Below, piece by piece: positions 1,682 to 59,637 of a stretch of 64,000 nt of DNA (positions are counted from its first letter, which is position 1; each line of letters opens with the position of its first letter). A program made the position numbers and the translations under genes. The notes beneath the pieces are model-generated. The model made no database searches, had not been told where the DNA came from, and saw only the letters and a program-made list of their open reading frames with translations. Source of the stretch: Acidobacteriota bacterium (GTDB taxonomy: Bacteria; Acidobacteriota; UBA890; WLXD01); contig CBDBHB010000007.1 in assembly GCA_965205505.1 (NCBI GenBank), positions 512,001 through 576,000 of the forward strand, given 5' to 3'.

Positions 1682-1890
1682 CCTTGACACGCAAGGTGCT
1701 GCCCATCCTCCTGACCGCGGACGAGACGGCCGAAGTCCTCCGCACCTCCCGGGAGGCCATCTACGCTATGGCCGCCCGCGGCCAGCTGCCTGGCGTCGTT
1801 CGGATCGGCCGCCGCATGCTCATCCGGTCCGAAGACCTGCTACGCTCGCTCGATGAAAGCCGTGCGCCATCAGCGCGAAAGGAGCGTTGA
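1678..1890 (+). CDS. xis: Excisionase-like HTH DNA-binding protein
   Basis: 70 aa; [39 protein letters not shown] is typical of HTH_17/Xis. Overlaps the integrase start. Confidence 0.85.
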
Positions 1891-22760: not shown

Positions 22761-22822
22761 ATTCACGACGCTTCAAGGTTAACAGGGTGCTGAAGAACTC
22801 TGTTAAGGCGCAGGGGCCAACC

Positions 22823-24058: not shown

Positions 24059-24072
24059 CAGGAGATTGCCCG

Positions 24073-25527
24073 GTGACCGAATTACGACTTGTGCTGGTGG
24101 CCTCTTTCTTGCTGTGCCTCGCACACGTGTCAACCGCACAAACGCGAACTCGTAATCCTGAAGCCCTGCCCGGCATCAGCGACACCTACTACGGGGCCTT
24201 CGACGACGACAACCCCTATGCGACCAAAGAAATGCTGAACCACATTCGCCGGGAGAAATTCGCCTTGGTTTTACCCCGCGTCATGCGTGATGAACGCATC
24301 GACATGTGGATTCACATTATTCGGCCCTGGACCTTTAGCGGAAACGAGCTCAGAAGACTAGAGGGCCTCGATCTCAATTACAGCAACATCGATTCCACCG
24401 ACCCCCTTCGCTATGAATTCGGCAGCAACGCCGCCGTCCTCGTCTTTACCGATCGTGGCGACGACAGAATTGAGCGGGTCGTCTTTGAAGGTGAGGTTGA
24501 TGACGACGGCGCCTTCGACATCGTCCGCGGCCAGTCGAAGTTCATTAATCAAGAGAATTACGAGATCATGGACTACGTCAGGGAGAACCCGAGCGACGTT
24601 CCCCACTCAGAGATGGGCTACCGGTTCATGGGGCTCGGAGATTTCGTCGCCGAACGTGACCCGAAGCGAATCGGTGTGAATTACGCGGAGAAACTGTCAC
24701 TCGCCGAAGGCTCCGAGACATATACCCTCGCCCTTACCGACGGTATTTCCTATGCGGACCACCTCCATTTGTCTCGCGCGTTGGGCGACAAGTACGCCAA
24801 GCGAATGGTCTCCGCCGAGAACATGATCTTGGACTACCTCACGAGTAGTGTCGCCGGCGAAATCGTTCTCTTTGGTGGCTCCGGCCTACCGCGCCGGACT
24901 AGGACATTTCAAGAGATCGTACCCGGCGTCACCACCTTGCGCGATGTAGGGGGCAGTTGGTTCTCGACGCGCGAATGGGATCATGATGAAAGCGCTTTCG
25001 AAGATTTCCCCCTCCAGCACGGCGACATGTTCCAGAGCGGCATGGTCCCTTACTACGTACTCCGTGAGGGAGAGACCGGGCCGCCTCCAGAAGTCCAAAG
25101 GAGCTGGGATGAGGTCGTGAGAGTCCGCAAGCTCATTAGCAAGAACATCAGGGTCGGTGATACAGGTCGCCAAGCCCTTGCGCGGATCAGCGGCAAATTG
25201 GAAGAAGCCGGGTTTGCCTACATCGACAGAGACAGATTCGACCCGAGCCTGGACCCCGAAAAGACCCAAGTGCACCTAGACCTCCATCAGGTTGGCAAGG
25301 GCATGCTGGCGCCCAGGGTTTCACCTATGGGTGCAAGATGGCACGCGGACAAGAAGATCCCGCTCCTGCTCACCTTGGGCATCGAATACATGGTCCATAT
25401 GCCCGTCCCGGAATGGGGTGAAGGGAGACATATTTACTATTGCAGTCTCCACGAGCGTGGCGTCGTCACGGAGCGAGGTGTCGAATTCGCCGCGCCACCT
25501 GTCGCTGGGATTCAGAGTATTCACTGA
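24073..25527 (+). CDS. Exported divergent M24-like protein, paralog 3
   Basis: GTG start after AGGAGA; signal peptide ending STA-Q; same motif series. Confidence 0.65.
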   Translation: MTELRLVLVASFLLCLAHVSTAQTRTRNPEALPGISDTYYGAFDDDNPYATKEMLNHIRREKFALVLPRVMRDERIDMWIHIIRPWTFSGNELRRLEGLDLNYSNIDSTDPLRYEFGSNAAVLVFTDRGDDRIERVVFEGEVDDDGAFDIVRGQSKFINQENYEIMDYVRENPSDVPHSEMGYRFMGLGDFVAERDPKRIGVNYAEKLSLAEGSETYTLALTDGISYADHLHLSRALGDKYAKRMVSAENMILDYLTSSVAGEIVLFGGSGLPRRTRTFQEIVPGVTTLRDVGGSWFSTREWDHDESAFEDFPLQHGDMFQSGMVPYYVLREGETGPPPEVQRSWDEVVRVRKLISKNIRVGDTGRQALARISGKLEEAGFAYIDRDRFDPSLDPEKTQVHLDLHQVGKGMLAPRVSPMGARWHADKKIPLLLTLGIEYMVHMPVPEWGEGRHIYYCSLHERGVVTERGVEFAAPPVAGIQSIH

Positions 25528-25642
25528 CCCGTCTCACCGCTCTGAGCCATCAGCGCGCCGTCTCCACCGGCAAGCCCGCCGCTGTATGTACTTCCAACCT
25601 CCAATTACAATGGCGCGGCCTCTCCTCTCGACAGAAGCCGGA

Positions 25643-27427
25643 ATGAGCACACCGCCAGCAGACGAAAGTGCCGTGCAGCGCCTCGACAGGCTCTACGAGT
25701 ATGATCGCGAGCCGGTTGCCGAGCAGCAGCTGCACGGGGGTGCTCGTTTCGCCGGTATGTATGCAGGCGAGCACGTCGCGGCCACCGAATTCGTCATCGG
25801 CGCCCTGTTTGTGAGTTGGGGGGCACGCGCGGGGGATGTTCTCATCGGCCTGCTGCTGGGCAATTTGATGGCGGTGCTGTCGTGGACACTGGTGTGCGCT
25901 CCGATTGCGACCCAAACACGCCTGACGCTGTATTGGTATCTGCGGCGCATCGCCGGGCCGGGGGTCACCACCATCTACAACGTGCTCAACGCGGTCCTGT
26001 ACTGCATTCTTGCCGGTTCGATGATCACGGTATCGGCCTCTGCGATTCGCATCCCCTTCGGTATTCCGCCGCAAACGCATTGGTATCCCGATGACCTGCG
26101 CTTCGTGCTTGTGGTTCTGGGCGTGGGAGCTGTGGTCGTTGCCCTTGCCATCTGGGGTTTCACACGCTTGGCACAGTTCGCGACGCTGTGCGCTCCGTGG
26201 ATGATCGCGATGTTCATCGCGGGTGCCCTCGCTACTTGGCCGAGTTTGGCCGCATCGGTTGCTTCCGAGGGGGGTGAAGCCGCTGGATTCCTCGAGGTTG
26301 CGCGCACCCGTATCTGGACCGGCGTGCCGGCAAGTGGGGGCGAGCCGATCACCTTTTGGCAGCTCGCTGCCTTTGCTTGGATTGCCAACATAGCCATGCA
26401 CTTGGGCCTCTCCGACATGGCGATTCTTCGCTATGCCCGGCGCGCGCGCTATGGACTGAACTCGGCCTTCGGAATGTTCCTGGGACACTATGTGGCCTGG
26501 ATCGCTGCTGGTGTGATGGGCGCGGCGGCCGCCTTGGCGTTGAATCAGCCGCTGACCGAGCTCGACTCCGGCGCAGTGGCGATGCACGCCCTGGGTGTGG
26601 CGGGGGCGATCGCCGTGGTAATTGCCGGTTGGACGACCTCGAACCCGACCCTGTACCGGGCCGGACTTGCGCTGCAGGCGGTTACACCCAATTGGCCGCG
26701 TTGGAAGGTGACACTCGTCGCGGGTGCGCTGACCACGGTCGTCGCTTGCTCGCCCTTTGTATTCACCAAGCTGCTGGGTTTTGTCGGCATATACGGAATT
26801 CTGCTGGCGCCGGTTGGCGGCATCGTGACCGCTTACCACTTCGTCCTACGCAAGCGTGGTGCGGCTCACCAAGTCTCTTCCATGTGGAACGCACCGGCGC
26901 TCATCGCCTGGGCGGCCGGCAGTCTGGGAGCTGTGGTTCTCTGGCAGACCGGTGTGGTGCATCTCTTCTTCCTGGCTGTTCCGGCCTGGGTGCTGAGTGG
27001 GATCTTGTACCTGGTGCTGGCGAAGAAGGGGACCGGGGGCAGCTCTATGACAGCTGACACTCGCAGTGACAGCGCTGCGGATGCGGCCCCATACCGGCCT
27101 TTGATTGGAACCGCCGGGAGCGGCCCCGAGGAGGCACCGAGCTTCGCCAAAGCCGCCGGCCTGGTGGCGCTCCTCGCGCTCGTGACTTGCGTGGCGCTTC
27201 CGGTATGGATTCTGCTTTCGTCCGAAGCAGAACGCGCGTCGAGAACCGGACCCTTCAAGACCTGGTTGTTGATCGCCTCACTGGTCTACTTCGTGGCGGG
27301 TAGTCTGTGGATCTACCGTCGCCGTAGCGATGGTTCAGCGGCGCAATCAATCGTCGATCTCATTTCAGGGAACATTGTGAACATCTGCGCCGGACAACCG
27401 GCCGCTTTGCCCGGTGAATGGCAATGA
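25643..27427 (+). CDS. NCS1/cytosine-permease-like transporter
   Basis: YEYDREPV, AGEHVAATEFVIG, AGWTTSNPTLYRAG; more than 12 TM segments. Confidence 0.75.
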   Translation: MSTPPADESAVQRLDRLYEYDREPVAEQQLHGGARFAGMYAGEHVAATEFVIGALFVSWGARAGDVLIGLLLGNLMAVLSWTLVCAPIATQTRLTLYWYLRRIAGPGVTTIYNVLNAVLYCILAGSMITVSASAIRIPFGIPPQTHWYPDDLRFVLVVLGVGAVVVALAIWGFTRLAQFATLCAPWMIAMFIAGALATWPSLAASVASEGGEAAGFLEVARTRIWTGVPASGGEPITFWQLAAFAWIANIAMHLGLSDMAILRYARRARYGLNSAFGMFLGHYVAWIAAGVMGAAAALALNQPLTELDSGAVAMHALGVAGAIAVVIAGWTTSNPTLYRAGLALQAVTPNWPRWKVTLVAGALTTVVACSPFVFTKLLGFVGIYGILLAPVGGIVTAYHFVLRKRGAAHQVSSMWNAPALIAWAAGSLGAVVLWQTGVVHLFFLAVPAWVLSGILYLVLAKKGTGGSSMTADTRSDSAADAAPYRPLIGTAGSGPEEAPSFAKAAGLVALLALVTCVALPVWILLSSEAERASRTGPFKTWLLIASLVYFVAGSLWIYRRRSDGSAAQSIVDLISGNIVNICAGQPAALPGEWQ

Positions 27428-36881: not shown

Positions 36882-37871
36882 TCAGCCGCCTACCTGCACC
36901 ACCACCTTACCCATGGCCTGACCGGATTCCAGTCGGGCATGGGCCGCTGCCACATCTTCGAGGGCATAGGGTTCGCCATCCATCAGTGGGCGGATCTGCC
37001 CGGCTTCCGCGAGGGCGGTGATCTCCCGCATGATCTGGCCGTGCGCGGCCGCCCCCGCCCCGTGCAACAACGGGATCAGCATCAGGACGCCGATATGCTG
37101 CAATCCCTTCAGATGCACGGGCGTCAAATCCTGGGTCGAATTGTTCTGGCAGCTGACCACCGTGCCCTTCAGTTTGGCGGCGGCCCAGGATTTCGGGATG
37201 TTCTCACCGCCAACCGTGTCAAAGACGATATCGAAGCCGGCCCCACCCGTATGGGCGGCGACGTAGTCCTCGACGCTGTCTTCTCGATAATTGATGGGAA
37301 TGGCGCCGAACTCGCTGACCACGGACGCCTTTTCCGGGCCGGATACAGTCGCATAGACTTTGGCCCCGCGGGCGATGGCGATCTGTATGGCGACATGGCC
37401 GACGCCGCCGGCGCCCGCGTGAACCAAGACAGTCTGGCCTTAGCCTACATTGGCGCCATCGACAAGGGCTTCCCAGGCGGTCAGACAGACCAGGGGTAGC
37501 GCCGCGGCTTGCGCCATCGACAGGTTGGTCGGTTTCGGCGCCAGAAAGTCAGCATCACAGGCCATGAGTTCAGCCAAAGCCCCGCCCGTACCTTTGACCC
37601 CGCCGGCACAGCCATAGACCTCTGCGCCCACCTCGAAAGCGTTGACCTCGGCGCCGACAGCCTCCACCACGCCGGCCACGTCGCCCTGCAGCACGGCGGG
37701 CAAATCGGGGCCCAGAGGCAGACCGAGCTTGCGGATCTTCCAGTCCACCGGGTTTACCGAAGTCGCCGCGACCCGCACCAGGACCTGGCTGGGGCCGATG
37801 CGTGGCACCGGGACATCCGCCGCTTCGAAGACCGAGGGTTCGCCGCTTTCGCGGATGATCATGGCTTTCAT
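36882..37871 (-). pseudogene. MDR-family NADPH:quinone oxidoreductase with an in-frame TAA at 37440-37442
   Basis: SVNPVDWKIR, GDVAGVV, ANVG*GQTVLVHAGAGGVG; both ORFs are in the same frame. Confidence 0.85.
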
Positions 37872-40347: not shown

Positions 40348-41880
40348 TCATGCTGCACCAATATGTTCCGCCAACCTAACCGCAAGCGCCGATACCGTTA
40401 ACGTCGGGTTGGCCGCTCCAATACTGGGGAACACAGCATTCGAACATACATAGAGATTATCCGTGCCGTGAACCTGTAAATCAGGATTGACGACACCGTC
40501 TTCATCGGAGCTGCTCATGCGGCAGGTTGACGCTGCATGGGCTCCATCAGGATCACTAACATCGCTTTCGATACTCTCTTCCTTGCACCCGGCGGTTTTC
40601 AGTATCTCAACAAACGTCTGCATGTGTTCCTGTCGAGTCTTGATGTTGATGTCGTGAACGCCGACCTCGATTTCTGTCGTGGGAAGGCCGTGTCTCGTTG
40701 TACCGCTTCCCAAGCTCACTCGGTTCTCCGGGCTTTCGAATTGCTCCATTTCGCCGCCCAATGAGATTCTCATCTCAGAACTCAAGCTTACATCCATATC
40801 AGGCCGCGACACATTTGAAAGGATTTGCCTTTCCAAAGAGGAGCTCGCGCCGACACCCCCAGAAAACCACATTTTGCCTTTATGCTGATATTCCGGTGAA
40901 TCAAAATGACGGCTGATCAGGGAGGAGAAGCCGAGTTCCCCAGCGAGCTTGTCCGGGTTTCCTGGCCGAACGCCTGAGGCGCCCATCACCGGATGGCCGA
41001 TCAAATGCCGGCCGACATGCCCTGAGTCGTTGCCTAGACCGTCGGTCCAGTCGTTGTTGGCAGAGGACAGCAGAAGTTTCGCGGATTCGATTGTGCCACC
41101 GCAAACGATAACCACATCAGCTTCCAGTGAGTCAGGAGCACCCGTCTCAAGGTTTAGAAAGCCGACTCCCCGGGTACGCTGTTTCCCATCCATCAATATG
41201 TTGATGACTGGCGATTCTGTTTTCAGGGTCAGCTTGTCGTCATATTCATCTTGCAGTTGTGCCAAATCGTAGAGAGCCGTATATCGCGCATTCACAGGGC
41301 AATAATTGCAGGTTCCTGTCGTAATACATCGATTGCCGTCCCTGGCTATCGACATATGCCCGTAGGATATGTCATGGCTCGTGAGAGCCTCGATGATCAG
41401 CGCGTCACCTAGGGTAAAAGCGGTTGGTGGGAATGGGTACTTCGCACCATACCGTGGTGGATCATCATTCTCTGAATCACCCGTAATGCCCAGTAGAATC
41501 TCGGCTTCCGCATAATAGGGCGCCATATCGTCATAGTTGATTGGCCAGTCGGCCCCGTATCCGGTACGGGACTTTAGTTCAAAGTCTTCAGGTTTGAGGC
41601 GCGGCGTCAGGCCGCCCCAGTGATTGGTCGTGCCGCCTTTCACAAAGAGCCTTGAGCCACGTAGTCCGAAGTGTTCGGTCTCCGTTCTCGGATCATCAAC
41701 GAACTCTCTGTAGAGATCGACGTCGGCCATCACTTGATCAAGCCAAATTCGATAATCGCCAGGCTTGAAGTCAGGACCTGCCTCAAAAACAGTGATCTGA
41801 TAGTCGTTCTCGGTTTTGAGGAGCTGCCTCGCCAATGTCGCACCGGCCACGCCGGAGCCAACGATGATGATGGACTTCAT
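40348..41880 (-). CDS. GMC family flavoprotein oxidoreductase, large subunit
   Basis: IVGSGVAG, GGTTNHWGG, DWPINY, Cys cluster CITTGTCNYCP, VCSNAVFP, ANPTLT. Confidence 0.9.
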   Translation of the reverse strand: MKSIIIVGSGVAGATLARQLLKTENDYQITVFEAGPDFKPGDYRIWLDQVMADVDLYREFVDDPRTETEHFGLRGSRLFVKGGTTNHWGGLTPRLKPEDFELKSRTGYGADWPINYDDMAPYYAEAEILLGITGDSENDDPPRYGAKYPFPPTAFTLGDALIIEALTSHDISYGHMSIARDGNRCITTGTCNYCPVNARYTALYDLAQLQDEYDDKLTLKTESPVINILMDGKQRTRGVGFLNLETGAPDSLEADVVIVCGGTIESAKLLLSSANNDWTDGLGNDSGHVGRHLIGHPVMGASGVRPGNPDKLAGELGFSSLISRHFDSPEYQHKGKMWFSGGVGASSSLERQILSNVSRPDMDVSLSSEMRISLGGEMEQFESPENRVSLGSGTTRHGLPTTEIEVGVHDINIKTRQEHMQTFVEILKTAGCKEESIESDVSDPDGAHAASTCRMSSSDEDGVVNPDLQVHGTDNLYVCSNAVFPSIGAANPTLTVSALAVRLAEHIGAA

Positions 41881-42464
41881 GCTCCTCTCCTGTAGCTCTC
41901 GGGAGCAGTGAACGCACCACCAAAGTATCCGCTGTAGTTCCATAGCCCAAAGCTCTTGAAGGCGCCCGACATGGGAATTTGATGAGTGATCAATTCGGCG
42001 AAGACGAAGCGCCTGGCACGTCCGAGTTTTGTGGATGAGAAATTCTCGACGTCGAATTCTGAAAAGAGAAGGGATGCCCACGCCTGCTCGACACCGGAGG
42101 TGCTGCCTACCACCAGATTGAACAATTCGACAGCATTCTCGTATTCCGTCAAGTAGCTGGGTTCCTCCTCTGTCTTGAATTGGAGGTCCGCCCTTAGCCG
42201 GCCGAAATAGAGGGGCATGTCGGCCCCTAGTTCCCAGGCCTGGTTCACGTACCGGCACAAAGTTGACAGAGCGTCGAACTCATCCTGGCTCAGGACGCCG
42301 GTTCGCGTCTCATCGACGGGCAAGTCGGAGTCGCTTATGAAATGGAGCAACTCGGCGGAGTCATCCTGGGTCAAGGGGATGCAAGCAAAGGGCAGAGAGG
42401 CAAGCACCCCCGAGGAAAGGCCCAGCTTCAGGAGCCGCCTTCGATCAATGTACAGCTTCCTCAT
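41877..42464 (-). CDS. Tat-signal small subunit partner of the GMC dehydrogenase
   Basis: DRRRLLK Tat motif; overlaps the GMC start; C-terminal GLWNYSGY. Confidence 0.7.
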   Translation of the reverse strand: MRKLYIDRRRLLKLGLSSGVLASLPFACIPLTQDDSAELLHFISDSDLPVDETRTGVLSQDEFDALSTLCRYVNQAWELGADMPLYFGRLRADLQFKTEEEPSYLTEYENAVELFNLVVGSTSGVEQAWASLLFSEFDVENFSSTKLGRARRFVFAELITHQIPMSGAFKSFGLWNYSGYFGGAFTAPESYRRGA

Positions 42465-44512: not shown

Positions 44513-46738
44513 ATGCTGAGACGAGTACTGACGATGAGCGCGGTGACGTTGATCGTGTGTGCGTTCGCATTAACGACGCAGCTCCTTACCTCGCCGGTCC
44601 AGGCACAAGATGTGCCGGAACCGAAGGCCATGGCCACTGCGGCCAGCATGGTGCCGACGTACGAAGCGGTCTGTGCCGATTGTCATGACAATCAGAGCGA
44701 CGAGATGGCACCCACTCCGGAGGCGCTCAGACAGATGGACCCGGAGCAGGTGCTCATTGCCCTGATGGAAGGGCCCATGGTGGAGTTCACGTCCGAGTTC
44801 ACGGACGGCGAGCTACGGGCGATGGCAGAACTGGTCACCGGCAAGCCTCTCGGTAGCTCCGTCGACCGCACCATCTATCCTGCAAGGATGGTCGGTGCGT
44901 TCGAAAACGGGTGTGCAGTCTGCCACGACAACTCACCTGCCGGTCGCCCCGTTTCGGGCGGCACCGCTCCCGCCAACATGCCCTCACGGTTCGATATTCA
45001 GCAGATGGAACCCGACGAGCTCCTGGCAGTGTTGAACCGACCGATCGCGGCACATGACGAGAGCGATCGCTTCCGGATCTGGGACGACGAGGAGTACACG
45101 CGTGCCGTCATCGAGCTCGTAACCGGCAAGCCGTTCGGCGGCGTTGCCCACCGCGAGGCGTCGGCCATGCCGAACCAGTGTGCCGAGTCCCTGAACCTGG
45201 ACAACTGGGACAACCAGCCCAGTTGGAACGGTTGGGATCCCGAGCTCGGTGTGCATCGGTTCGCGTCGGAGGCGGTCGGCGGGATCACCGCCGAGGACCT
45301 CCCGCGGCTGAAGCTGAAGTGGGTTTTCGCGATCCCGGATGCCTCGGTAGCTAACTGGTCGCAACCCAGCGTGGTGGGCGGTGCGCTGTTCATAACGAGC
45401 GACAACTTCTTCGTGTATGCGCTCGACGCCAAGACCGGCTGCGTTCACTGGTCGTATCGCGCGCAGACGGCGGTCCGGGGAGCGGTCAAGGTCGGCCCGG
45501 TCGATGATGTACCGGGGGTCCGACATGGCGCGTACTTTGGCGACATGAGCGGGGTCGTGTACGGCGTGAACGCCGAGACGGGCGAAGAGATGTGGAGCCT
45601 GCGCGCCGACGACCACCCACAGGCGAAGATCACATCCGCAGTGAGGCTCGATTCCTCAGGCGAGCGCCTGTATGTGCCGGTCGCGTCGTGGGAAGAACAG
45701 CCTGGTTCCTACGTCGAGTACGAGTGCTGCACGTTCCAGGGCAGCGTCGTGGCCGTCGACGTGAAGACCGGGGAGAAGGTCTGGCAAACGTACTCTTTTC
45801 CAGAACGGCCTCGGCCACTCAACAAGACGAACTCGGCCGGCACGCCGCTGTTCGGACCAGCCGGCGCCGGTATCTGGAGCTCGCTCACGATCGACGAGAA
45901 ACGGCGCGCCATCTATGCGCCCACCGGGAACTGCAACATCACCGAGCACTTCGGTGTCGGCAACGTGACCTTCGACGGCGGCGCCTGCGGCTCGATACTG
46001 GCCATCGACATGGATACCGGCCGACGGTTGTGGATGACCAATCTTCGTCCTGCGGCCTCGGATCGAGACGAAGGTGGCTGCGGCCGAGGTCCCGAGCGTC
46101 TGGTCAATTGCCCTGGCTACGTTCAGGGCCCGGGCGACGACGTCAACCAGGCGATCCTGCTCGACCTGCCGAACGGCCGCAGAGTGCTGCTGGGTGTACA
46201 GGAGAGCGGCCGCATCACCGCTTTGGATCCTGACAACGACGGGGCAGTCCTCTGGGTCGCCCAGGCCGGCGACCAGCTTGCGCCTAACGGCGCAGGTTGG
46301 GGCGGGGCTTCCGACGGCGAGCTCTTCTATCGTCCACTGAACTACCGGGACGCGACCGGAGCCGTTGCGGCGTTGCGGGTGACGACGGGCGAGCGCGTCT
46401 GGTACACGGAACTGCCGGGGCTGGAGGACTGCGACCTGCCGGGTTGGAACTCTTGCTCCTCGGGTATGACGGCGGCGGCAACCGCAGTGCCCGGCGCGGT
46501 AATCACCGGCTCGAGCGAAGGGACACTCCGTGCGTATTCGAAGGCGGACGGCGGGATTCTCTGGGAATACACCACGGAGAGAAGCTACGAAGCCGTCAAC
46601 GAAATACCGGCATTCGGGGGCGCGATTGGTGCCACCTCCCCGACGATCGTCGATGGGATGATGTACCTGGGATCCGGGTACGCGCTTTTCGGCAATAGGC
46701 CGGGGAATGTGCTATTGGCCTTCGGGATAGACGACTAG
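44513..46738 (+). CDS. Exported PQQ-dependent dehydrogenase (PVA-dehydrogenase-like) with two c-type heme motifs
   Basis: Signal peptide, CADCH and CAVCH, LKLKWVF, ALDAKTGCVHW repeats, ECCTFQG, GAGIWS. Confidence 0.88.
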   Translation: MLRRVLTMSAVTLIVCAFALTTQLLTSPVQAQDVPEPKAMATAASMVPTYEAVCADCHDNQSDEMAPTPEALRQMDPEQVLIALMEGPMVEFTSEFTDGELRAMAELVTGKPLGSSVDRTIYPARMVGAFENGCAVCHDNSPAGRPVSGGTAPANMPSRFDIQQMEPDELLAVLNRPIAAHDESDRFRIWDDEEYTRAVIELVTGKPFGGVAHREASAMPNQCAESLNLDNWDNQPSWNGWDPELGVHRFASEAVGGITAEDLPRLKLKWVFAIPDASVANWSQPSVVGGALFITSDNFFVYALDAKTGCVHWSYRAQTAVRGAVKVGPVDDVPGVRHGAYFGDMSGVVYGVNAETGEEMWSLRADDHPQAKITSAVRLDSSGERLYVPVASWEEQPGSYVEYECCTFQGSVVAVDVKTGEKVWQTYSFPERPRPLNKTNSAGTPLFGPAGAGIWSSLTIDEKRRAIYAPTGNCNITEHFGVGNVTFDGGACGSILAIDMDTGRRLWMTNLRPAASDRDEGGCGRGPERLVNCPGYVQGPGDDVNQAILLDLPNGRRVLLGVQESGRITALDPDNDGAVLWVAQAGDQLAPNGAGWGGASDGELFYRPLNYRDATGAVAALRVTTGERVWYTELPGLEDCDLPGWNSCSSGMTAAATAVPGAVITGSSEGTLRAYSKADGGILWEYTTERSYEAVNEIPAFGGAIGATSPTIVDGMMYLGSGYALFGNRPGNVLLAFGIDD

Positions 46739-48755: not shown

Positions 48756-49154
48756 TCAGACTTGCCAGTTCTCTGCCCGCAGGCCGATGATTCGCGAGAA
48801 CTCGCGGACGTTGGCGGTCACCAGCACGCATTCGTGCGCGAGGGCGATGGACGCGATGAGCAGATCGTTGGCGCCGATCGGCTCTCCGCGGGCGGCGAGA
48901 TCGTGTCGGATCGTGCCGTAATCGGACGCGGCGTCGTCGTCGAACGGCAGCGAGCGGAAGGTCGCGAAGAATTCGTCGAGCAGGCGGAGGTTCTCGTTGA
49001 CTCGGCTGCTGCGCCGCGCCCCGAAGAGGAGCTCGGCCTTGACCACCGAGCACAGACAGATCTCCGACGGATGGTGGCGCCGCAGCGCATCGATCAGCGC
49101 CGGCGAGGTGCCGTTGAGAACCGCGATGCACGCGTTGGTGTCAAGCAGGTGCAT
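48756..49154 (-). CDS. vapC: PIN-domain toxin
   Basis: LLDTNACI, SVVKAELLFG, IGANDLLIA, LVTANVREF. Confidence 0.95.
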   Translation of the reverse strand: MHLLDTNACIAVLNGTSPALIDALRRHHPSEICLCSVVKAELLFGARRSSRVNENLRLLDEFFATFRSLPFDDDAASDYGTIRHDLAARGEPIGANDLLIASIALAHECVLVTANVREFSRIIGLRAENWQV

Positions 49155-51811: not shown

Positions 51812-53626
51812 TCAGGACGCGTCGATATGGTCGGCGGCCGGCGGGTAGAATCGGTCGACGCTGTTGCTCATGAGAAAGTGGTAGGCGACCGTGTTGGGCG
51901 GCTCCAGCGGACGATCGGCCGGGGCTTGTTGCCAGGGCATCACCTGGCGGAATGCTTCCCAGGACGCCGTCGGCGCTTCCCCGAAACGGCGCGAAGGGTC
52001 CTGGATTTTCCGGATATCCATCCAATAGGCGGCCGTCATCAGGTCCTGTGCGAGCAGCCGCATGGTGGACCGAACGACGGCGCGTGCGCGCGTCACCTTT
52101 AGAAAGGTCTGCGCTTGGAGTTCTTCCACCGCGTCGCTTACCGGAACGCCCTCGGGGGTCAGCGGATGCGAGAGGATCTGGATCTCTTGCCAGATCGCCG
52201 TGGGATCGTAGCCGATCCCCCAGGGGGCGGCGTTCGCGCGCTGCTCGGGCGTCAGCACGTCCTCGGGCGAGACCACTGTGAAGAAGGGATTGCCGAACCG
52301 GTAGATGCGTTGGACGACGGCGACATCCATGTTGGCGAGCGCGTTGGTGAAGGCCTCGATTTCGTTGGCCATGGGAATAGGGATCCCAGTTCGCGTTCGA
52401 AAAAATGAAGCCGCTCTGACCGTTGCTGTGCTCGCCGCCGCGCACGTAGTATTTCATCGCCTGCGGCGTGTTCAGCTCCCAGCTGTCTTCGGGCGAGACT
52501 CCCACGAGCACGGCGGGATTCTGGTCGGATGAGTTGATCTGCAGGAGCACCGTGTCTCGCAGCATCGCCCAGGCCTTCCAGGCCGAGCCCTGCCGCGCAT
52601 AGGAGGCGCGCATGCTCACCGGGTCCTGGATGATCCGTTGCGGATCATCGTCGAACAGATAGCTGCCGCGGAGCATGTCAAGCACCCGCGCGGCGTCGAG
52701 ATTGAGCCATTTGAAAGGCCGGTTCGCCTGCACCGGCGAGGTGAGCGGCATCACGCTGCTGTTGAGCGCGGCCAGATCCATCGCATAGATGAGGTCGGCC
52801 CAGTCGATCGCCGCGCGCCCCTCGGCGACCAGCAGCGCCGCCTGGCCGACGGCGTAGGCGTTGGTGCTGAAGAAGGCGGAGGTGTAGACTGCTCGAGCGG
52901 CTCGAGCGGCTCGAGCGGCTCGAGCGGCGACAGCCCCGCCGCCTCGAGCGCCTGTGCGGCAGTCATGCGCTCGCCCTGGTAGTAGGCGAAGCCTTCCCCG
53001 CCCATCACCGCCAGCACATTGCCCATCTGCGACAGGTCCGCCTCGCCGAGCGAGCCGCGCGAATATACGGCCGGCGTCACCCGCGAGTTGAGCATGTCGA
53101 CGAGAATCTGGCTCAGCCCCGGGCTCGCCGCCTCATAGACCATCGTGTTGGCCCGCACCGCCATCAGCGCGCGCACGATCTCCTCGTCGGAGACTTCCGG
53201 GCCGATACCGCGCTGGGCGCCGGCGCGAAACGCCCGCTTGCGGCGGTTGTAGATATAGTCGCGGTTTTCGGGCGCCAGCGGATCGCCGGTGAACAGCGAG
53301 ACCTCGCGCCCCGATCCCGCGCCGCGATTGAAGCCATAGATCGCAACGCCCTCGGTCGACGCTTGGCGAATCAGGCCGAACGCCTCGTTCTGGCGTTGCC
53401 TGGCCTCGGGGCTCAGCTCCACCTTGGCACCGTACCTGGCGATGTCGACGACCTGCTCGATAGTCATGTCCTCGCCGGTCAGCACGATGCTGCGGTCGAC
53501 CATCGTCGCCGTAATCGAATGATAGGAGGGCGGCGCCTCGGTCATTTGCGCTTGGGCGATGCCGCAGCTAAGCAACGCCGCCGCCACTGCGATCGGCGCT
53601 CCCCGTGACCGTGCCTTATTCATCAT
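51812..53626 (-). CDS. Aromatic amino acid ammonia-lyase (HAL) family protein lacking the ASG/MIO triad, with a signal peptide; frameshifts near 52890 and 52376
   Basis: IYGFNRGAG, GSLGEADL, STNAY, IQDPVSMR, NSSDQNP, SNANWDPYP, VEELQ; spans three ORFs. Confidence 0.8.
52892..52927. repeat. 9-bp tandem repeat (CTCGAGCGG)x4
   Basis: Read directly; encodes PLE repeats in the lyase. Confidence 0.95.
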
Positions 53627-53878
53627 CACGACATCCCCGTCCAAGAGTCACCGTCCGCTGTCTTCATTCCTGGTAGGCGCGCGGCATGGCGCGCGAAACA
53701 CAGGATTGGCCTCGCTTCGGCTACTCTACGTCTGCCCAGTGGGGTCTTTCGAGGACTAATCTACGAGTTTTCTTCGCCCTGAGTGGACGGGCCGCTGGTG
53801 CGCGGGTCCGCCTATCGCCTCTTTGAAATCGAATACCGGTCCTGTACTCACGGCACTTGCCTACTGGAGGCTCCCGGA

Positions 53879-55624
53879 ATGGGGTTGCGCGGCATAGTTG
53901 CTTTGCTCGCCTTGGCCCAGGCGTCCATTGGATCAGATGGCTCGCTCGCGGACATGGTTTTCGTGAATGGCGCCGTTTACACGGTTGATGCCGCGCGAAG
54001 CTGGGCGTCCGCGGTGGTCGTGACCGGTGATCGAATCACTTATGTCGGGGACGATGCCACTGCGCGCGATTTCGCCGGCCCGGCGACACGTGTCGTCGAC
54101 CTCGGGCGGCGCATGCTGCTACCAGGCTTCCAGGACTCCCATGTGCACCCTGGGATGGTTCCCAATCCGGCCGACTACGTAAGGCTCGACGGCCTGATTC
54201 GTCGCCAGGAGGTACTCGAGAGGCTTCGACAGTATGCCCAGGCGCGTCCCGAAAAACCCTGGATAGAGGGCGGCGGCTGGGACGAGACGGCGTTTCTTCC
54301 CAGCGGCCTACCCACCCGGGAGATGCTCGATAGCGTGGTCCCGGACCGACCCGCCTATCTGGTTAACAACTCCGGCCACGGCGGCTGGGCCAATTCGCTG
54401 GCGCTGGCCGCCGCGGGCATCAGCGCCGATACCGCCGACCCGCCCAACGGACGAATCGAGCGCGACGCGGACGGTCAGCCCACGGGCGCACTGCACGAGG
54501 AGTCGGCAATGGCGCTGGTCGACGCCGTCATTCCGCCGCTGACGGCCGAGGCGCGCGTGCTGAATCTGTCGGCGGCGCTGGACGAAATGAGTCGACTGGG
54601 CATTACGGCGCTCGAAGACGCCATGGCCACTCCCGAGATCGCGCGCGCCTACAAGACGCTGGACGAGCGCGGCGAACTGAAACAGCGCACCAACCTGTGT
54701 CTGCCCCACAGCCCCGCCGAAGACGACGACGCTCAGATCCAATCGTTCCTGACCCAACGCGCCGAGCTTGCCGGTCGTCGGCTACGGGCTAGCTGCGTGA
54801 AGCTCTTTCTCGACGGCGCCTACGGGTCTCACACGGTGGTCTTACTCGAGCCGTATAGCGACGATCCGAAGAGGTACGGTAAGGGTGAGCTTTTTATCGA
54901 ACAGAGCCGACTCGATCGTCTTGTCACCCGCCTGGACGCCGAGGGTTTTCAGGTGCACGCACACGCTCAAGGCGACGGCGCCGTGCGTGCCGCCCTCGAT
55001 GCCTTTGCCGAGGCTCGTCGGCACAACGGCTTTCGCGATAACCGGCACACAATCGCCCACCTGTGTCTGATCGACGCCGCCGACATCCCACGATTCAGAA
55101 CCCTCGGTGTGATCGCCAACATGACCCCCTTGTGGAGCCTTGGTGACGCCTGGGAAACGGTGTTTGCGCCACGCCTATTCGGGCCGGAGCGCAGCCAGCG
55201 TATCTTCCAGACTCGAACTCTCCTGGGCTCGGGCGTGATGATCGCCTGGGGCTCGGACTGGGACGTCACCGGAGTTTCACCCCTCGACGGCCTCGAGACC
55301 GCTACCACCCACCGCTATCCCGGCGGCATAGATCTCGCCGGCAATGAGGACAGCGCCTGGATTCCTGAGGAGAGGATCAGCCTGGAGCAAGCGATCGTCG
55401 CCTACACCAGCGCTGGGGCCTATCTCATGCACGCCGACAGCACGAGAGGATCGCTCTCGGCAGGAAACCTGGCTGACTTCGTCGTTCTGGACAGCAATCT
55501 CTTTGAAAGGAATCCCCTGGAGATCCACACCGTGCAGGTCGACATGACGGTCGTCGGTGGACAGTTGGTGTACACGGCGCCTGTCCCGGCTTCACCGAGC
55601 GATGCTGCCCCTTCCCGCAGTTAG
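53879..55624 (+). CDS. Exported Amidohydrolase_3 family protein
   Basis: PGFQDSHVH, KLFLDG, HAQGD, IAHL, GSDW. Confidence 0.9.
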   Translation: MGLRGIVALLALAQASIGSDGSLADMVFVNGAVYTVDAARSWASAVVVTGDRITYVGDDATARDFAGPATRVVDLGRRMLLPGFQDSHVHPGMVPNPADYVRLDGLIRRQEVLERLRQYAQARPEKPWIEGGGWDETAFLPSGLPTREMLDSVVPDRPAYLVNNSGHGGWANSLALAAAGISADTADPPNGRIERDADGQPTGALHEESAMALVDAVIPPLTAEARVLNLSAALDEMSRLGITALEDAMATPEIARAYKTLDERGELKQRTNLCLPHSPAEDDDAQIQSFLTQRAELAGRRLRASCVKLFLDGAYGSHTVVLLEPYSDDPKRYGKGELFIEQSRLDRLVTRLDAEGFQVHAHAQGDGAVRAALDAFAEARRHNGFRDNRHTIAHLCLIDAADIPRFRTLGVIANMTPLWSLGDAWETVFAPRLFGPERSQRIFQTRTLLGSGVMIAWGSDWDVTGVSPLDGLETATTHRYPGGIDLAGNEDSAWIPEERISLEQAIVAYTSAGAYLMHADSTRGSLSAGNLADFVVLDSNLFERNPLEIHTVQVDMTVVGGQLVYTAPVPASPSDAAPSRS

Positions 55625-55635
55625 AGCGAGCGACG

Positions 55636-57102
55636 CTAGTCCCCGGCCTTGACGACCTCCTTCATGTACCAGTTGACGAAGCCGTTGGGGCCGCCCTCGA
55701 AGGTGGAGTAGCGACTGGCAGCGTAGGCGCCGGACTCGATGCCCACGTGGTTGTTGTCGGTGATCCAGATGTCTTCCAGGAGCGTGATGTACCACAGCGC
55801 CTTGACGTTGTCCGGATCATAGTCGCGACCCTCGACGGCGTCGGGATGCACCAGCCAGACAGTCTCGCAATCGGTGAGCTTCTCCGTCCGCGGCGTGAAC
55901 CGTGCTACCACAACGTGATCGTCGTAGGCTTGCCAGAAGCCGGTGGTCTGGCCTGACCCGGCTTGGTCAGTCTCGTGGTTCCACCCTGTGATGTTGGGAA
56001 GGAGGATTGAGACCGGCTTGCCGTCGACCGACCCGGTGATGAAGCCGGGATTGAGCAACCCACCCATGCTCCCGGTGAGCTGCCCCGGTCGGGACTCCTC
56101 CGGAACCCACGCCGCGACCTCAGCAGCCCTTTCGTTTCTCTGCTCGCGCGTGAGCTCCAGATTCCAGTTGTGCGTCGCCACCAGATTCGTGTGCGACGGG
56201 CCGCAGTGATAGCACTCCCTGAAGTTCTCGATGAACAGCTTCCAGTTGGCGTTGATCGGGACGTATTCGCGTGCCGCGACCTTCAGATCCTCGAGGCTCC
56301 ACTTCTCGCCGATGTCCCTCACCGAGCTCACAGCCGACTCGAAGTCCGGCGGCGTGTCCGACTTGGACAGGTTGACGAAGACCTGGCCTTCGGCGACCCG
56401 CGTGTGGCAGGGAAGCAAACCGTTGTCGGCCGGGTCGAAGTCGTCCTGCATGCCGTAGGCGTAGATCAGGTTGCCTTCGGTGTCGTACGTCCAGGCGTGG
56501 TATGGGCAGCGGAACACCGGTGAGTTACCGGACTGGCCGAGCTGCTTGACCGACAGGCGCGGGTCGCTCGGGGGCGCGTCGGCATCGTGGCGGCACAGGC
56601 GCGAGCCGCGGTGGCGGCAGACGTTGTAGAAGCCTCGGATCTCGTTATCCGTACCACGGACGATCAGGATGGACTCGGAGCGACCGAACTCGAATACGTA
56701 GAAGTCACCCGGGTTCGGAATGCGGCTCGCCTGGTCGGTGTACTGCCAGATGTTCTCGGCCAAGAACGCTTCATCGGCGTCGAAGTGCTTTGGGTCGAGG
56801 TAGTACTCGGCGGGAAGGGTCAGGCCGTCCTTCCAGACGTCCGCGCTGGCTCTCTGGGGGACCGGCGTGGTCAAGGGAGCCGCATCCCCGCCACCGTAGC
56901 CACCGGGCTCGTCTGGCATCTCGACACGAGCCGCACGACCATAGGTCGTCTTCGTCGCGGCGCTCTTGACCGGGGTCGAGCCGAGCAACGTGTTCGGCAG
57001 GGCGACAGCCGCGGTGCCGGCGGCGACCGAGGTCTTTGCGAAGGTCCGGCGGCTGAGCTTGGTATCCGCGCCGTTCGTCTCGCCTGTATCTCGCTTGCTC
57101 AT
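55636..57102 (-). CDS. Rieske non-heme iron oxygenase alpha subunit (GbcA/choline monooxygenase-like) with a Tat signal
   Basis: SRRTFAK plus hydrophobic stretch; CRHRG...CPYHAW; NWKLFIENFRECYHCGPSH; ED in the C-terminal helix. Confidence 0.9.
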   Translation of the reverse strand: MSKRDTGETNGADTKLSRRTFAKTSVAAGTAAVALPNTLLGSTPVKSAATKTTYGRAARVEMPDEPGGYGGGDAAPLTTPVPQRASADVWKDGLTLPAEYYLDPKHFDADEAFLAENIWQYTDQASRIPNPGDFYVFEFGRSESILIVRGTDNEIRGFYNVCRHRGSRLCRHDADAPPSDPRLSVKQLGQSGNSPVFRCPYHAWTYDTEGNLIYAYGMQDDFDPADNGLLPCHTRVAEGQVFVNLSKSDTPPDFESAVSSVRDIGEKWSLEDLKVAAREYVPINANWKLFIENFRECYHCGPSHTNLVATHNWNLELTREQRNERAAEVAAWVPEESRPGQLTGSMGGLLNPGFITGSVDGKPVSILLPNITGWNHETDQAGSGQTTGFWQAYDDHVVVARFTPRTEKLTDCETVWLVHPDAVEGRDYDPDNVKALWYITLLEDIWITDNNHVGIESGAYAASRYSTFEGGPNGFVNWYMKEVVKAGD

Positions 57103-57211
57103 GCCGCCCTCCATCCGTCGAGTCCGAAACTGCAGTGCCCCTTCCGCTTGCCACGACGAGCGGTACCAGGAACCCGGTGATATTACAACCGTAGCGCCGT
57201 CACCTGGCGGT

Positions 57212-57243: not shown

Positions 57244-59637
57244 TCACGGCGAGTCATCGGTTCCCTGCAGCCGGAGCAAGAACAGGCCCTCGCGCTGGCT
57301 GCTGACGGCGACAACCCCGCTCTTGAAATAGGGGTAGTTGCTCCACGCGCCGACGGACGTCACGCCGGCCACACCGAAGCCGCCGTCATCGCCCCACGGA
57401 ACGGTGTCGAGGAAGCCGATCGGGCGCATGCGCTCGCGATCGCTGATGTCGTACACGCGCAGGCCGCTGCGGAGGACGGATTGGTACATCACGTCGCCGA
57501 GGATATAGAGGTTGTGGTCGGTACCCGTGGTCTCGGAGACGTACTCGCCGACGAGGATCGGGTCGTCGAGCTCGGAGATGTCGAAGATCATCGTGCGCGC
57601 GCCGGGGGTGAGCCCGTTGATCTCGTCCAGCTCGTCGTTCAGGTAGAAGTACCGGTGGTCGTCGGAGACCCCGCCCTGGTGCGTGTAGCCGACGTTCGGG
57701 TAGGTGGCGATCGACACCGCCACCGGGTTCCGCTTGTCGGTGACGTCGGCGATGCTGACCGCCGTTGCGTTCGACCCGATGCAGATCTCGTGGCCCGCGT
57801 AACGCTCGTCGGGGCCGCTGTAGATGATGCACTGGGCGTCGTGTGTGTAACCGGTGCCTCGGCCGGTGTTGGTGTCGGCGAAGCAGCCCTCGAAGATCGG
57901 CTGCCGCGGGTCCTCGACGTTGATCATGTGGAGCCCGCCACCACAGGTCTCGCCGCCGCCGCTGGCGCCGACGACGTAGGCGTAGGGGGTGCCCTCGTCG
58001 ATGACGATGTTGTGGGCGCTGTGGATGCGGTCGTAGTGCGCGTCCTCCGAAAAGGCGAGCGGCTCACCCTCGAACTCGCGCAGGTGTGCCAGATCGAAGA
58101 TCTGCACGCCGTGCTCGCCGGCGCCGTCGGCGACGATGAACACGTGGTCGCCGTAGATCTTGAGGTCGCGCCACAGACTCGGCGTCGCGCCCTCAGTCTT
58201 CTCGATGCTGCCGACCCACACGGGAGCGTACGGGTCGGTGACGTCGACGAAGGAGGTACGGTCGCTCATCCCGACGATGGCGTATTCGCGGCCGGTCTCG
58301 GGATCGGCCCACCCCCACATGTCGTTGACCCCGACGCCACGGCTGCCGCCGAGCTCGTGGATCGGCATGAAGGCCACCAGGTCGACGTTGTCGCAGGGGA
58401 AGATGGCGGCCATGCCGTCGACGCACTCGATGGTCTCGCCGATGAGTGGCTCGAGCCGCGCCTCCTCGCTGAGCACACGGGCGCGGTCCCAGCCGCCGAG
58501 GCCGCGGCTCATGATCACGGCGGTGCCGGCGCTGTAATCGTCCCCGGGAATGCCGGCCGCGACGACATCGCCCCAAGCCGCCAGGGAGGCTCCCATCTGG
58601 GTGCGGCCCAGGAGGCCCATCGCGCCGATCTTGCTCGCGGTGGTCCAGTTGCCCGTGCCGTCCCGCCGGAAGTGGTAGACGTCTCCTGTCCCACCGTTGG
58701 CGCCGGGGGCGCCTACGAAGGCTTCGTCATTGTCGAAGACCACCGCCGTGCCGAAGCGGCTGCCGGCCGGAGCGTCGTACGGCACCAGCGTGCCATGCTG
58801 GACCCACTCGCCGGCAGGCTCGTCGAATCGGTAGGCGTAGACCGCCCCGGCGCCGTCGTCGACACCCGGCGAGCCGATCATCACCTCACCGTCGCCGGAG
58901 CCCATAGTGGAGCCGAAGGCGTCTCCCGCGGCGGACTCGAGGCCCGCCAGGCTGCCGGCAGGTTGCCAGCCGTTGCCCTGGCGCCGAAACATGTGCACGC
59001 GCCCCGGATTCGTTCCCCCTCCCGGCGCCCCGACGAAGAGCCAGTCCCCCCAGACGGTTACGCTGCTGCCGAAGTTGGACGGCGCGACTCCCTCGTCCTC
59101 TGCCTCGTCCGCGGCGTCCTCGGGACGCAACTTGGAGAGGAGCTCCCAGCCCGCACCCCCGCGGCGGTAGAGGTAGACGGCGCCGATCCCGTCGTCGCGC
59201 TGTGGCGCCCCCACCGCCATGATGCCGCGCGCTGCTGCCATCGAGCCGCCGAACTGGTCCCCGGCGGTACCGTCGTCCGGCGCCACCCGTCCTACCTCGA
59301 CCCAGCTCCTGCCTCGGCGCTCGAAGACGTAGGCGGCCCCCGCGCCCGCCTGCGTCGCGCCGACGAGCACCCGCTCCCCGGCTACCGCCAGCGACGCGCC
59401 GAACCCGTCTCCGACGGAGGAATCGGAGCGCGTGAGGCGCTGGAACTCCACCCAGCCCCCGGAGCCCGGCCGGTACACGTAGACGATGCCGGGGCCGGCC
59501 TGGTTGGCCGGCTCGCCAATGAGGATCTCGCCCTCGACGGCGGCGACCGCACGGCCGAAGCCGAGCTGCGCTTCGGCGGGGCTCGCCAGCGCGAGCGCGA
59601 GAAGGGTGAGACAGATCACGGGGACGTGCTTGCTCAT
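57244..59637 (-). CDS. Secreted FG-GAP repeat + choice-of-anchor B/LVIVD protein
   Basis: Signal peptide, repeated FG.S.A...VGAP...GAVY, NDMWGWAD, SAHNI, YTHDAQC, YTHQG, GAWSNYPY. Confidence 0.88.
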   Translation of the reverse strand: MSKHVPVICLTLLALALASPAEAQLGFGRAVAAVEGEILIGEPANQAGPGIVYVYRPGSGGWVEFQRLTRSDSSVGDGFGASLAVAGERVLVGATQAGAGAAYVFERRGRSWVEVGRVAPDDGTAGDQFGGSMAAARGIMAVGAPQRDDGIGAVYLYRRGGAGWELLSKLRPEDAADEAEDEGVAPSNFGSSVTVWGDWLFVGAPGGGTNPGRVHMFRRQGNGWQPAGSLAGLESAAGDAFGSTMGSGDGEVMIGSPGVDDGAGAVYAYRFDEPAGEWVQHGTLVPYDAPAGSRFGTAVVFDNDEAFVGAPGANGGTGDVYHFRRDGTGNWTTASKIGAMGLLGRTQMGASLAAWGDVVAAGIPGDDYSAGTAVIMSRGLGGWDRARVLSEEARLEPLIGETIECVDGMAAIFPCDNVDLVAFMPIHELGGSRGVGVNDMWGWADPETGREYAIVGMSDRTSFVDVTDPYAPVWVGSIEKTEGATPSLWRDLKIYGDHVFIVADGAGEHGVQIFDLAHLREFEGEPLAFSEDAHYDRIHSAHNIVIDEGTPYAYVVGASGGGETCGGGLHMINVEDPRQPIFEGCFADTNTGRGTGYTHDAQCIIYSGPDERYAGHEICIGSNATAVSIADVTDKRNPVAVSIATYPNVGYTHQGGVSDDHRYFYLNDELDEINGLTPGARTMIFDISELDDPILVGEYVSETTGTDHNLYILGDVMYQSVLRSGLRVYDISDRERMRPIGFLDTVPWGDDGGFGVAGVTSVGAWSNYPYFKSGVVAVSSQREGLFLLRLQGTDDSP

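Follow-up and report, generated by a model that had tools for sequence, protein, structure and literature searches.

A Rieske oxygenase gene that carries an export signal and stands without a reductase gene raises the question of where its product works and how it is supplied with electrons; Rieske oxygenases are described as cytoplasmic enzymes that are fed by NAD(P)H via reductases and ferredoxins. Such a gene is found in a 64,000-nucleotide stretch of DNA from an Acidobacteriota bacterium (assembly GCA_965205505.1, contig CBDBHB010000007.1, positions 512,001 to 576,000; hereafter, the window). There, an initial annotation made from the sequence alone had described a twin-arginine translocation (Tat) signal, intact Rieske and mononuclear-iron motifs, and the lack of a reductase partner. 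The most economical account, which we consider probable, is that the gene encodes a Tat-exported group V Rieske monooxygenase drawing its electrons from periplasmic haem proteins.

Read from its first ATG, the open reading frame (ORF) of the oxygenase spans 55636-57114 on the minus strand and encodes 492 amino acids (aa; P0001), to which all residue numbers refer. A second in-frame ATG at 57102 opens a 488-aa form (MSKRD...), which matched the database cluster representative P0002 at 100%. The coordinates of the initial annotation, 55636..57102, fit this second ATG and the GGAGG ahead of it, and the minus strand is added to them here. From its N-terminus, the protein consists of a charged n-region, S21-R-R-T-F-A-K27, the uncharged residues T28-V49, a linker reaching to residue ~95, the Rieske domain and the Ring_hydroxyl_A domain. 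Since the twin-arginine motif is downstream of either candidate start and the leader is moreover conserved as protein, the objection that the true start is to be sought downstream of the leader fails.

Conservation of the leader was assessed in a search of 5.8 billion clustered proteins, which gave 2881 matches at E ≤ 1e-20 among 8000 candidates scored. The best 120 of these matches cover 48-100% identity and are mostly 450-520 aa long. Counting the query and the best 120 matches together, 111 of 121 proteins show RR-x-hydrophobic and then 10 or more uncharged residues; the remaining 10 begin within or past the leader, as would be expected from miscalled starts or contig ends. The leader variants seen most were SRREFAK, SRRDFAK and SRRTFAK. 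In an alignment of 27 diverse homologues, which are 50-80% identical to the query, R22, R23 and F25 were invariant in all 27 sequences, revealing the twin-arginine leader to be a property of the homologues as well.

Hydrophobicity of the leader, taken as the best 13-residue Kyte-Doolittle mean, was 1.31 for the window oxygenase, with a family median of 1.68 and values of 1.18-1.88 for the Tat leaders of spermidine dehydrogenase (SpdH)-like proteins of the same genome, which are treated below. A helix was predicted at residues 22-34 in the AlphaFold model. The leader of the window oxygenase is without an obvious A-x-A site (NTLLGSTPVKSAA), and LRA-E or LGA-E, resembling a signal peptidase site, is present in many homologues. 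The genome of the window encodes tatA and tatC. With a motif of the S/T-R-R-x-F-L-K type, an uncharged h-region, a conserved leader and the Tat machinery, the oxygenase has the features by which a Tat substrate would be predicted, and we consider its export very likely.

Similarity of the oxygenase to solved structures begins at residues 92-97 (phmmer), and the predicted local distance difference test (pLDDT) value of the AlphaFold model is below 50 for residues 1-91; the first ~95 residues are therefore regarded as an add-on to a normal oxygenase core. The linker within this add-on holds a YGR...GYGG motif, which the alignment revealed to be common to part of the family. In the core, PF00355 (Rieske) scored 44 bits (cut-off 20.3) and PF00848 (Ring_hydroxyl_A) 88.6 bits (cut-off 24.9). 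The Rieske ligands C166, H168, C203 and H206 as well as H303, H308, D448, E300 and the CxxC pair of the iron site were found to be invariant in the 27 homologues. Residue 360 of Stc2, the counterpart of D448, is presumably an iron ligand. Translation, Pfam and the alignment thus confirm the Tat signal and the intact Rieske and mononuclear-iron motifs that the initial annotation had claimed.

The hallmark given for group V is a bridging glutamate immediately ahead of a Cys-x-x-Cys pair that encloses the first iron histidine (PMC10952381, PMC7948474). Judged by its motifs, the window gene is a complete group V (quaternary-amine-type, Stc2/GbcA/CntA-like) Rieske monooxygenase. The beta subunit PF00866 had no match in the window's genome (96% complete), conforming with an alpha-only enzyme. 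Among solved structures, phmmer gave 3n0q (E 3e-53), Stc2 (4e-49) and CntA (2e-28), and the order was the same in Foldseek, with TM scores on the target of 0.73-0.81. The best fold matches were Stc2 (PDB 3vca, 4qup) and the uncharacterised TM1040_3219 protein (3n0q) of group Vb, with TM scores of 0.78-0.81 and 29-31% identity. They have the alpha-only architecture, the E-C-x-H-C motif and the iron ligands in common with the window oxygenase, but differ from it in having no leader, no linker, a standard Rieske spacing (a 17-residue gap versus the query) and Asn at the position of Phe298. Furthermore, Stc2-type enzymes are cytoplasmic and NAD(P)H-reductase-fed, unlike what is proposed for the window oxygenase.

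In the group Va enzymes CntA (PDB 6y8j), choline monooxygenase and OxyBAC, an aromatic residue stands two positions before the bridging Glu (Y203 in CntA, Phe in OxyBAC). CntA has the bridging Glu and the CxxC pair in common with the window oxygenase, but only ~20% identity, and it is paired with its reductase CntB in the cytoplasm. Y203 of CntA is reported to make a pi-cation contact with the substrate ammonium and to define clade Va, whereas Stc2 and GbcA (Vb) have Asn (PMC7948474). At this position, 26 of the 27 homologues have F, as does the window protein (F298), and one has W. By sequence, the window oxygenase is Vb-like overall, yet with a Va-type aromatic residue, and F298 hints at a cationic amine substrate. 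The best NCBIfam model was that of GbcA (NF058607, E 2e-67); it was ruled out that the gene is a GbcA orthologue, as the score was 227.5 bits versus a cut-off of 670, and a GbcB-type reductase was also not found in the genome.

The two motifs binding the Rieske cluster span 41 residues, which is atypical compared with the 24-25 residues of conventional relatives. The family-specific insertion between them (Table 1) has S188, V189 and Q191 invariant across the 27 aligned sequences. When co-occurrence of insertion and leader was counted in 147 oxygenase ORFs from the retrieved loci, 25 had both, 115 had neither and two had the insertion only, both of the latter being cut by the contig start. Five ORFs that a loose Tat regular expression had scored as having a leader only were rejected as false positives, since they were over-extended ORFs or contained arginine-rich stretches and no signal. 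Leader and insertion (of 17 residues or more) are, hence, coupled: the leader was found in all 25 complete sequences that contain the insertion and in 0 of 120 conventional relatives. The insertion, placed next to the cluster, is a candidate for a new docking or tuning element; pLDDT is below 50 also at residues 168-180, and the model is unreliable for the position of the insertion relative to the cluster. The cluster motifs themselves (CRHRG...CPYHAW) are of the ordinary oxygenase type, and the signature of high-potential Rieske proteins (a second loop cysteine for a disulfide, Ser after the second His) was sought in the oxygenase motifs and not found.

Regarding the supply of electrons from NAD(P)H, Pfam revealed no ferredoxin, Rieske ferredoxin, FNR-type reductase or glutathione-reductase-type reductase in the 41 other ORFs of the window. 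The genome (5.98 Mb) contains two FNR-type NAD-binding (NAD_binding_1) matches and 13 Fer2 matches. No FNR-type match adjoins a Fer2 match or a Tat-type oxygenase, and no reductase of the GbcB/CntB type was found genome-wide, other reductase types being outside this survey. The absence of an adjacent reductase partner, as initially annotated, is thus upheld for the window and, for the two FNR-type matches, for the vicinity of every Tat-type oxygenase in the genome.

Other redox proteins recur next to the oxygenase. Clustering of the genes around 22 oxygenase matches in the window's genome revealed one strongly recurrent neighbour, a flavoprotein of ~650 aa with 14 copies (12 full-length, 2 fragments). 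It is located beside or near about half of the oxygenase copies, often co-directional and down to 7-10 bp apart. The flavoprotein is a full-length match to the spermidine dehydrogenase SpdH of P. aeruginosa (PDB 7d9f, E 1e-124), and every full-length copy has a leader of the ITRRDF type. SpdH (PA3713) is reported as an experimentally validated Tat substrate (PMC6085387), and electrons move within it from FAD to haem b, with reduction of cytochrome c in vitro (PMC12564564). It is the counterpart of the oxygenase's neighbours, with which it has the type of Tat leader in common, and not of the oxygenase. Descriptions of SpdH present it as a polyamine dehydrogenase acting alone; a link to a Rieske oxygenase was not found in the literature searched.

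In other genomes, SpdH-like genes were present in 11 of 33 Tat-type loci (6/12, 4/15 and 1/6) and in none of 130 conventional loci. The second recurrent neighbour is a protein 150-200 aa long that has a leader of the Sec or lipoprotein type, a single CxxCH and a conserved Met-Pro and scores above the Pfam cut-offs for cytochrome c. This small c-type cytochrome was found in 14 of the 33 Tat-type loci and again in none of the 130 conventional ones; its hidden Markov model was built from 10 of the 14 positive loci, so that the independent finds number four. The cytochrome gene abuts the oxygenase gene in 12 of these 14 loci, in eight co-directionally and in four convergently. On contig L168, the order SpdH-like gene, oxygenase, oxygenase, cytochrome c lies on one strand. 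Overall, 23 of the 33 Tat-type loci have an SpdH-like or a cytochrome c partner, and pyrroloquinoline quinone (PQQ) dehydrogenases, some with cytochrome c domains, recur near Tat-type oxygenases (9 loci). The cytochrome c route that had been guessed at the outset thereby gains comparative support. The predicted complex of one adjacent oxygenase/cytochrome c pair (L088, alignments A2 and A3) had a score of 0.00 versus a mark of 0.32, which speaks neither for nor against the pairing.

Three further observations were made in these neighbourhoods. In the window's own genome, tatA (71 aa) and a truncated tatC (131-aa ORF, profile positions 2-97 of 208) are located at C9:2059140-2059765 (L083:1125-1777), just downstream of an SpdH-oxygenase-SpdH-oxygenase cluster and on the same strand; an intact tatA-tatC pair is encoded elsewhere in the genome. 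An arginase/agmatinase-family gene with a lipoprotein-like leader lies near the closest relatives of the window gene in two genomes (L001:11613-12854, L003:15168-16502), which is a hint at guanidino or polyamine metabolism outside the cytoplasm. A neighbour family recurring in five loci (e.g. L007:8654-9934, L091:2053-3333, L001:8481-10079) combines a CxxCH with a weak match to the C-terminal domain of copper type II monooxygenases.

To place the oxygenase among its relatives, 44 Tat-type and eight conventional sequences (52 in total) were used for a quick maximum-likelihood tree, the root of which is uncertain because of long outgroup branches. All 44 Tat-type oxygenases fell into one clade (Shimodaira-Hasegawa-like approximate likelihood ratio test (SH-aLRT) 100), apart from the eight conventional sequences, and the window copy fell into a subclade of nine members (SH-aLRT 100). 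Several Tat-type subclades are common to different genomes; therefore, the paralogues are probably old and probably differ in substrate. Of the 79 loci that a search of a species-level genome collection yielded, only 12 extend over the N-terminal region, each of them from a metagenome-assembled genome of Acidobacteriota. In an evenly drawn sample of 401 Acidobacteriota genomes with the window's genome included, the oxygenase was present at E ≤ 1e-100 in eight genomes and 3 of 227 genera, namely in the window's genus (5/5, including G000) and in three genomes of two other genera. Within the collections searched, the Tat-type clade is found only in Acidobacteriota.

The window's genome has 17 full-length, leader-bearing copies and two broken loci, giving ~19 in total, besides a conventional relative of 412 aa and an oxygenase-aldehyde dehydrogenase fusion. 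The latter is a 925-aa protein (C6:336220-338997; L084:6220-8997) with Rieske, Ring_hydroxyl_A and full Aldedh (544 bits) domains, the oxygenase part of which has no leader and a normal cluster spacing; by its domains, it could carry out a two-step oxidation resembling that of choline to betaine on one polypeptide. Three insertion sequence transposases of the rve family, two of them exactly 342 aa long, are located a few genes from oxygenase clusters (C7:593143, C8:1162561, C9:1664030) and may have helped to spread the paralogues.

Table 1. Positions of the oxygenase gene, its sequence elements and neighbouring genes in the window.
Feature	Position	Strand	Basis
Rieske monooxygenase gene with predicted Tat signal	55636..57102	-	ORF list and translation; Pfam; match to cluster representative P0002
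Shine-Dalgarno-like GGAGG	57108..57112	-	5 nt ahead of ATG 57102; direct sequence reading
Twin-arginine motif S21-R22-R23-T24-F25-A26-K27	57034..57054	-	Translation; residues 17-23 in the 488-aa form
Uncharged h/c-region T28-V49 (TSVAAGTAAVALPNTLLGSTPV), 22 uncharged residues	56968..57033	-	Translation
Low-complexity linker, residues 50-95, joining the leader to the catalytic core	56830..56967	-	pLDDT; structure similarity; alignment
Rieske [2Fe-2S] domain, residues 123-218	56461..56748	-	Pfam PF00355
Family-specific 17-residue insertion D177-G193 (...DPRLSVKQLG) between the two cluster-binding motifs	56536..56586	-	Gap versus 3n0q and Stc2
Catalytic mononuclear-iron domain, residues 274-485	55660..56295	-	Pfam PF00848; best Foldseek matches 3n0q, Stc2, CntA
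F298-R-E300-C301-Y302-H303-C304-G-P-S-H308: aromatic 'position 203' residue, bridging Glu, CxxC pair, two iron His	56191..56223	-	Invariant or nearly so; roles after the papers on CntA and Stc2
D448, putative third iron ligand	55771..55773	-	Invariant; aligns with Stc2 residue 360
Exported FG-GAP/choice-of-anchor-B protein gene, 797 aa, Sec-type leader	57244..59637	-	Pfam FG-GAP_2; NCBIfam TIGR04312, 401.9 bits (cut-off 100)
Convergent Amidohydro_3 gene	53783..55624	+	Pfam; end 12 bp from oxygenase stop
Dihaem-cytochrome c/PQQ-propeller dehydrogenase gene	44513..46738	+	Pfam PQQ and Cytochrome_CBB3; Sec-type leader, two CxxCH

In the mechanism that we propose, the oxygenase would acquire its [2Fe-2S] cluster and its iron in the cytoplasm, be moved across the inner membrane in folded form by Tat, and be active in the periplasm as a free protein or with its leader as a tether. 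Periplasmic haem proteins would supply its electrons in place of an NAD(P)H reductase, which we regard as somewhat better supported than not. The likeliest donor would be the small His/Met c-type cytochrome, reduced in turn by SpdH-like FAD/haem b amine dehydrogenases or by PQQ/cytochrome c dehydrogenases. From the cytochrome, electrons would enter the Rieske cluster, cross the interface between subunits by way of E300 to reach the iron site, and end on O2, and a cationic amine (a polyamine or an N-alkylated or quaternary amine) would be hydroxylated or dealkylated. Such a substrate is suggested because of F298 at the cation-binding position and the amine dehydrogenases in the neighbourhoods, and it is put forward tentatively. 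Taken as a whole, the picture would be that of an NAD(P)H-independent periplasmic oxygenase chain of some Acidobacteriota, in which SpdH-like and quinoprotein dehydrogenases feed cytochrome c and, through it, a remodelled Rieske monooxygenase with ~19 paralogues per genome, so that many cationic amines are hydroxylated or dealkylated before uptake and the insertion serves in docking of the haem donor or in tuning of the potential; in this full form, it is a speculative proposal and less likely than not to hold.

Several points weigh against this account. Export of the oxygenase is a prediction, as it is drawn from the sequence of the leader and not from an experiment. The cluster motifs (CRHRG...CPYHAW) look like those of the usual low-potential oxygenase clusters, whereas His/Met cytochromes c are usually of high potential. 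Likewise, the electrode onset of SpdH, reported as -0.14 V vs Ag/AgCl (PMC12564564), lies above typical potentials of oxygenase Rieske clusters, and the thermodynamics of the electron transfer look awkward. As to the neighbourhoods, a third of the abutting cytochrome genes (4 of 12) are convergent and not co-directional with the oxygenase, and 10 of the 33 loci of relatives have neither partner. SpdH-like genes are present in 40 of the 401 sampled genomes versus eight for the oxygenase, and two oxygenase-bearing genomes are without SpdH at E ≤ 1e-60; therefore, SpdH is not an obligate partner but at most one of several inputs. Finally, no SpdH-like or cytochrome c gene is adjacent to the window copy itself; the closest SpdH-like gene lies beyond the window, at a distance of ~20 kb, and the five cytochrome homologues of the genome are at least 15 kb from any oxygenase copy.

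Alternative explanations were weighed against the same evidence. The oxygenase could be exported with its leader uncleaved and serving as a membrane anchor, similar to the bc1 Rieske protein, at the outer face of the inner membrane, where it would receive quinol-linked electrons and none from soluble haem proteins. Precedents exist in Rieske proteins that Tat inserts without cleavage (cited in PMC6085387), the window leader is without an obvious A-x-A site, and the 45-residue flexible linker behind it would suit a tether. We consider this unlikely, however, given that the h-region is short, rich in Ala, Gly and Thr and, with its mean of 1.31, weak for a transmembrane helix, that the LRA-E/LGA-E sites of many homologues resemble signal peptidase sites, and that no membrane quinol-oxidising gene is recurrent in the neighbourhoods. 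Another possibility is that the exported enzyme needs no donor, using H2O2 in a peroxide shunt, with the neighbouring dehydrogenases and cytochromes being mere members of the pathway. The redox-potential problem would be removed in this way, and CntA is reported to oxidise carnitine with H2O2 without reductase and NADH (PMC10952381). The Rieske ligands and the bridging Glu are, however, invariant, although a pure shunt needs neither; the partners are dehydrogenases with haem exits and not H2O2-forming oxidases; and the tight pairing with cytochrome c would be left unexplained, which makes the shunt improbable in our view.

Hardly any more credence is given to retention in the cytoplasm, where the RR segment would serve some other purpose (chaperone binding or regulation, for example) and an unlinked general ferredoxin and reductase would supply the electrons. 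The predicted nature of the export, the Fer2-domain matches of the genome, which could include usable ferredoxins, and the position of the window copy without a redox partner would all be compatible with it. It does not account for the conservation of a full Tat architecture (n-region, S-R-R-x-F-A-K and uncharged h-region), which is more than RR, nor for the complete absence of the leader from the 120 conventional relatives, and the recurrent partners bear Tat, Sec or lipoprotein leaders of their own. The last alternative is a reversed flow, in which a substrate is oxidised and the Rieske cluster passes electrons to cytochrome c without activation of O2. Arsenite oxidase is an example of a Tat-exported Rieske subunit that reduces cytochrome c, and a high-potential cytochrome c would be the natural acceptor. 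The Rieske proteins of cytochromes bc1 and b6f are also twin-arginine-carried [2Fe-2S] proteins exchanging electrons with c-type cytochromes (PMC6085387). Unlike the window oxygenase, these proteins and that of arsenite oxidase are without a mononuclear-iron domain, have high-potential motifs and are electron carriers, not oxygenases. In the Tat-type family, by contrast, a complete 2-His-1-carboxylate site for O2 activation and the group V signature are invariant, and to our knowledge, no Rieske/mononuclear-iron enzyme acts as a dehydrogenase. The abstract of a 2025 review of Rieske oxygenases lists only O2-dependent chemistries. Reversed flow is accordingly held to be very improbable, and the exported oxygenase supplied by periplasmic haem proteins is retained as the preferred account.

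In the immediate surroundings of the window gene, the choice-of-anchor-B gene is located upstream on the same strand and adjoins the oxygenase orthologue in three of three same-genus genomes. The convergent amidohydrolase gene was rejected as a functional partner, as it was not found at the three same-genus orthologous loci. A scan for promoters and terminators between 55400 and 60200 on both strands found none. Of the two dehydrogenases that the initial annotation had named as exported and as conceivable partners, the PQQ/dihaem dehydrogenase does have a Sec-type leader, but lies 9 kb away and is a possible, unlinked electron source. The GMC oxidoreductase (40348-42258) was discarded, since its most likely start, MKSIIIVGSG, is directly at the Rossmann fold and leaves no export signal.

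Elsewhere in the window, an aromatic amino acid/histidine ammonia-lyase is split into 51812-52372 and 52751-53644 (minus strand), covering Pfam positions 327-465 and 1-176 with the middle missing, so that the gene would seem to be frameshifted or decaying. The N-terminal (ADH_N) and C-terminal (ADH_zinc_N) domains of a zinc-type alcohol dehydrogenase lie in separate neighbouring ORFs (36882-37427 and 37440-37871, minus strand), apparently parted by a stop or a frameshift. At 21345-27427 on the plus strand, four large ORFs in a row (471, 423, 551 and 711 aa, with some overlap in the calls) have no Pfam match at E ≤ 0.001. A phage-type integrase is encoded near the window start (1887-3011, plus strand), and a PIN-domain (toxin-like) ORF lies between peptidase genes (48756-49154, minus strand).

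An exported Rieske oxygenase was not found in the full-text literature searched, papers in subscription journals being outside that search, and the words periplasm, Tat, signal peptide and membrane are all absent from the 2025 review. The conserved export signal and the periplasmic haem-protein neighbours point to a hitherto undescribed electron supply for Rieske oxygenases that would work outside the cytoplasm. If true, this would give Rieske oxygenases a new cellular location, a new class of redox partner and possibly an unusual cluster potential, and a Rieske oxygenase driven by a cytochrome or by an electrode-active flavocytochrome would be of practical interest for enzyme engineers. For the Acidobacteriota, a phylum of soils and sediments whose members are difficult to culture, it would imply oxidative processing of amines outside the cytoplasm.

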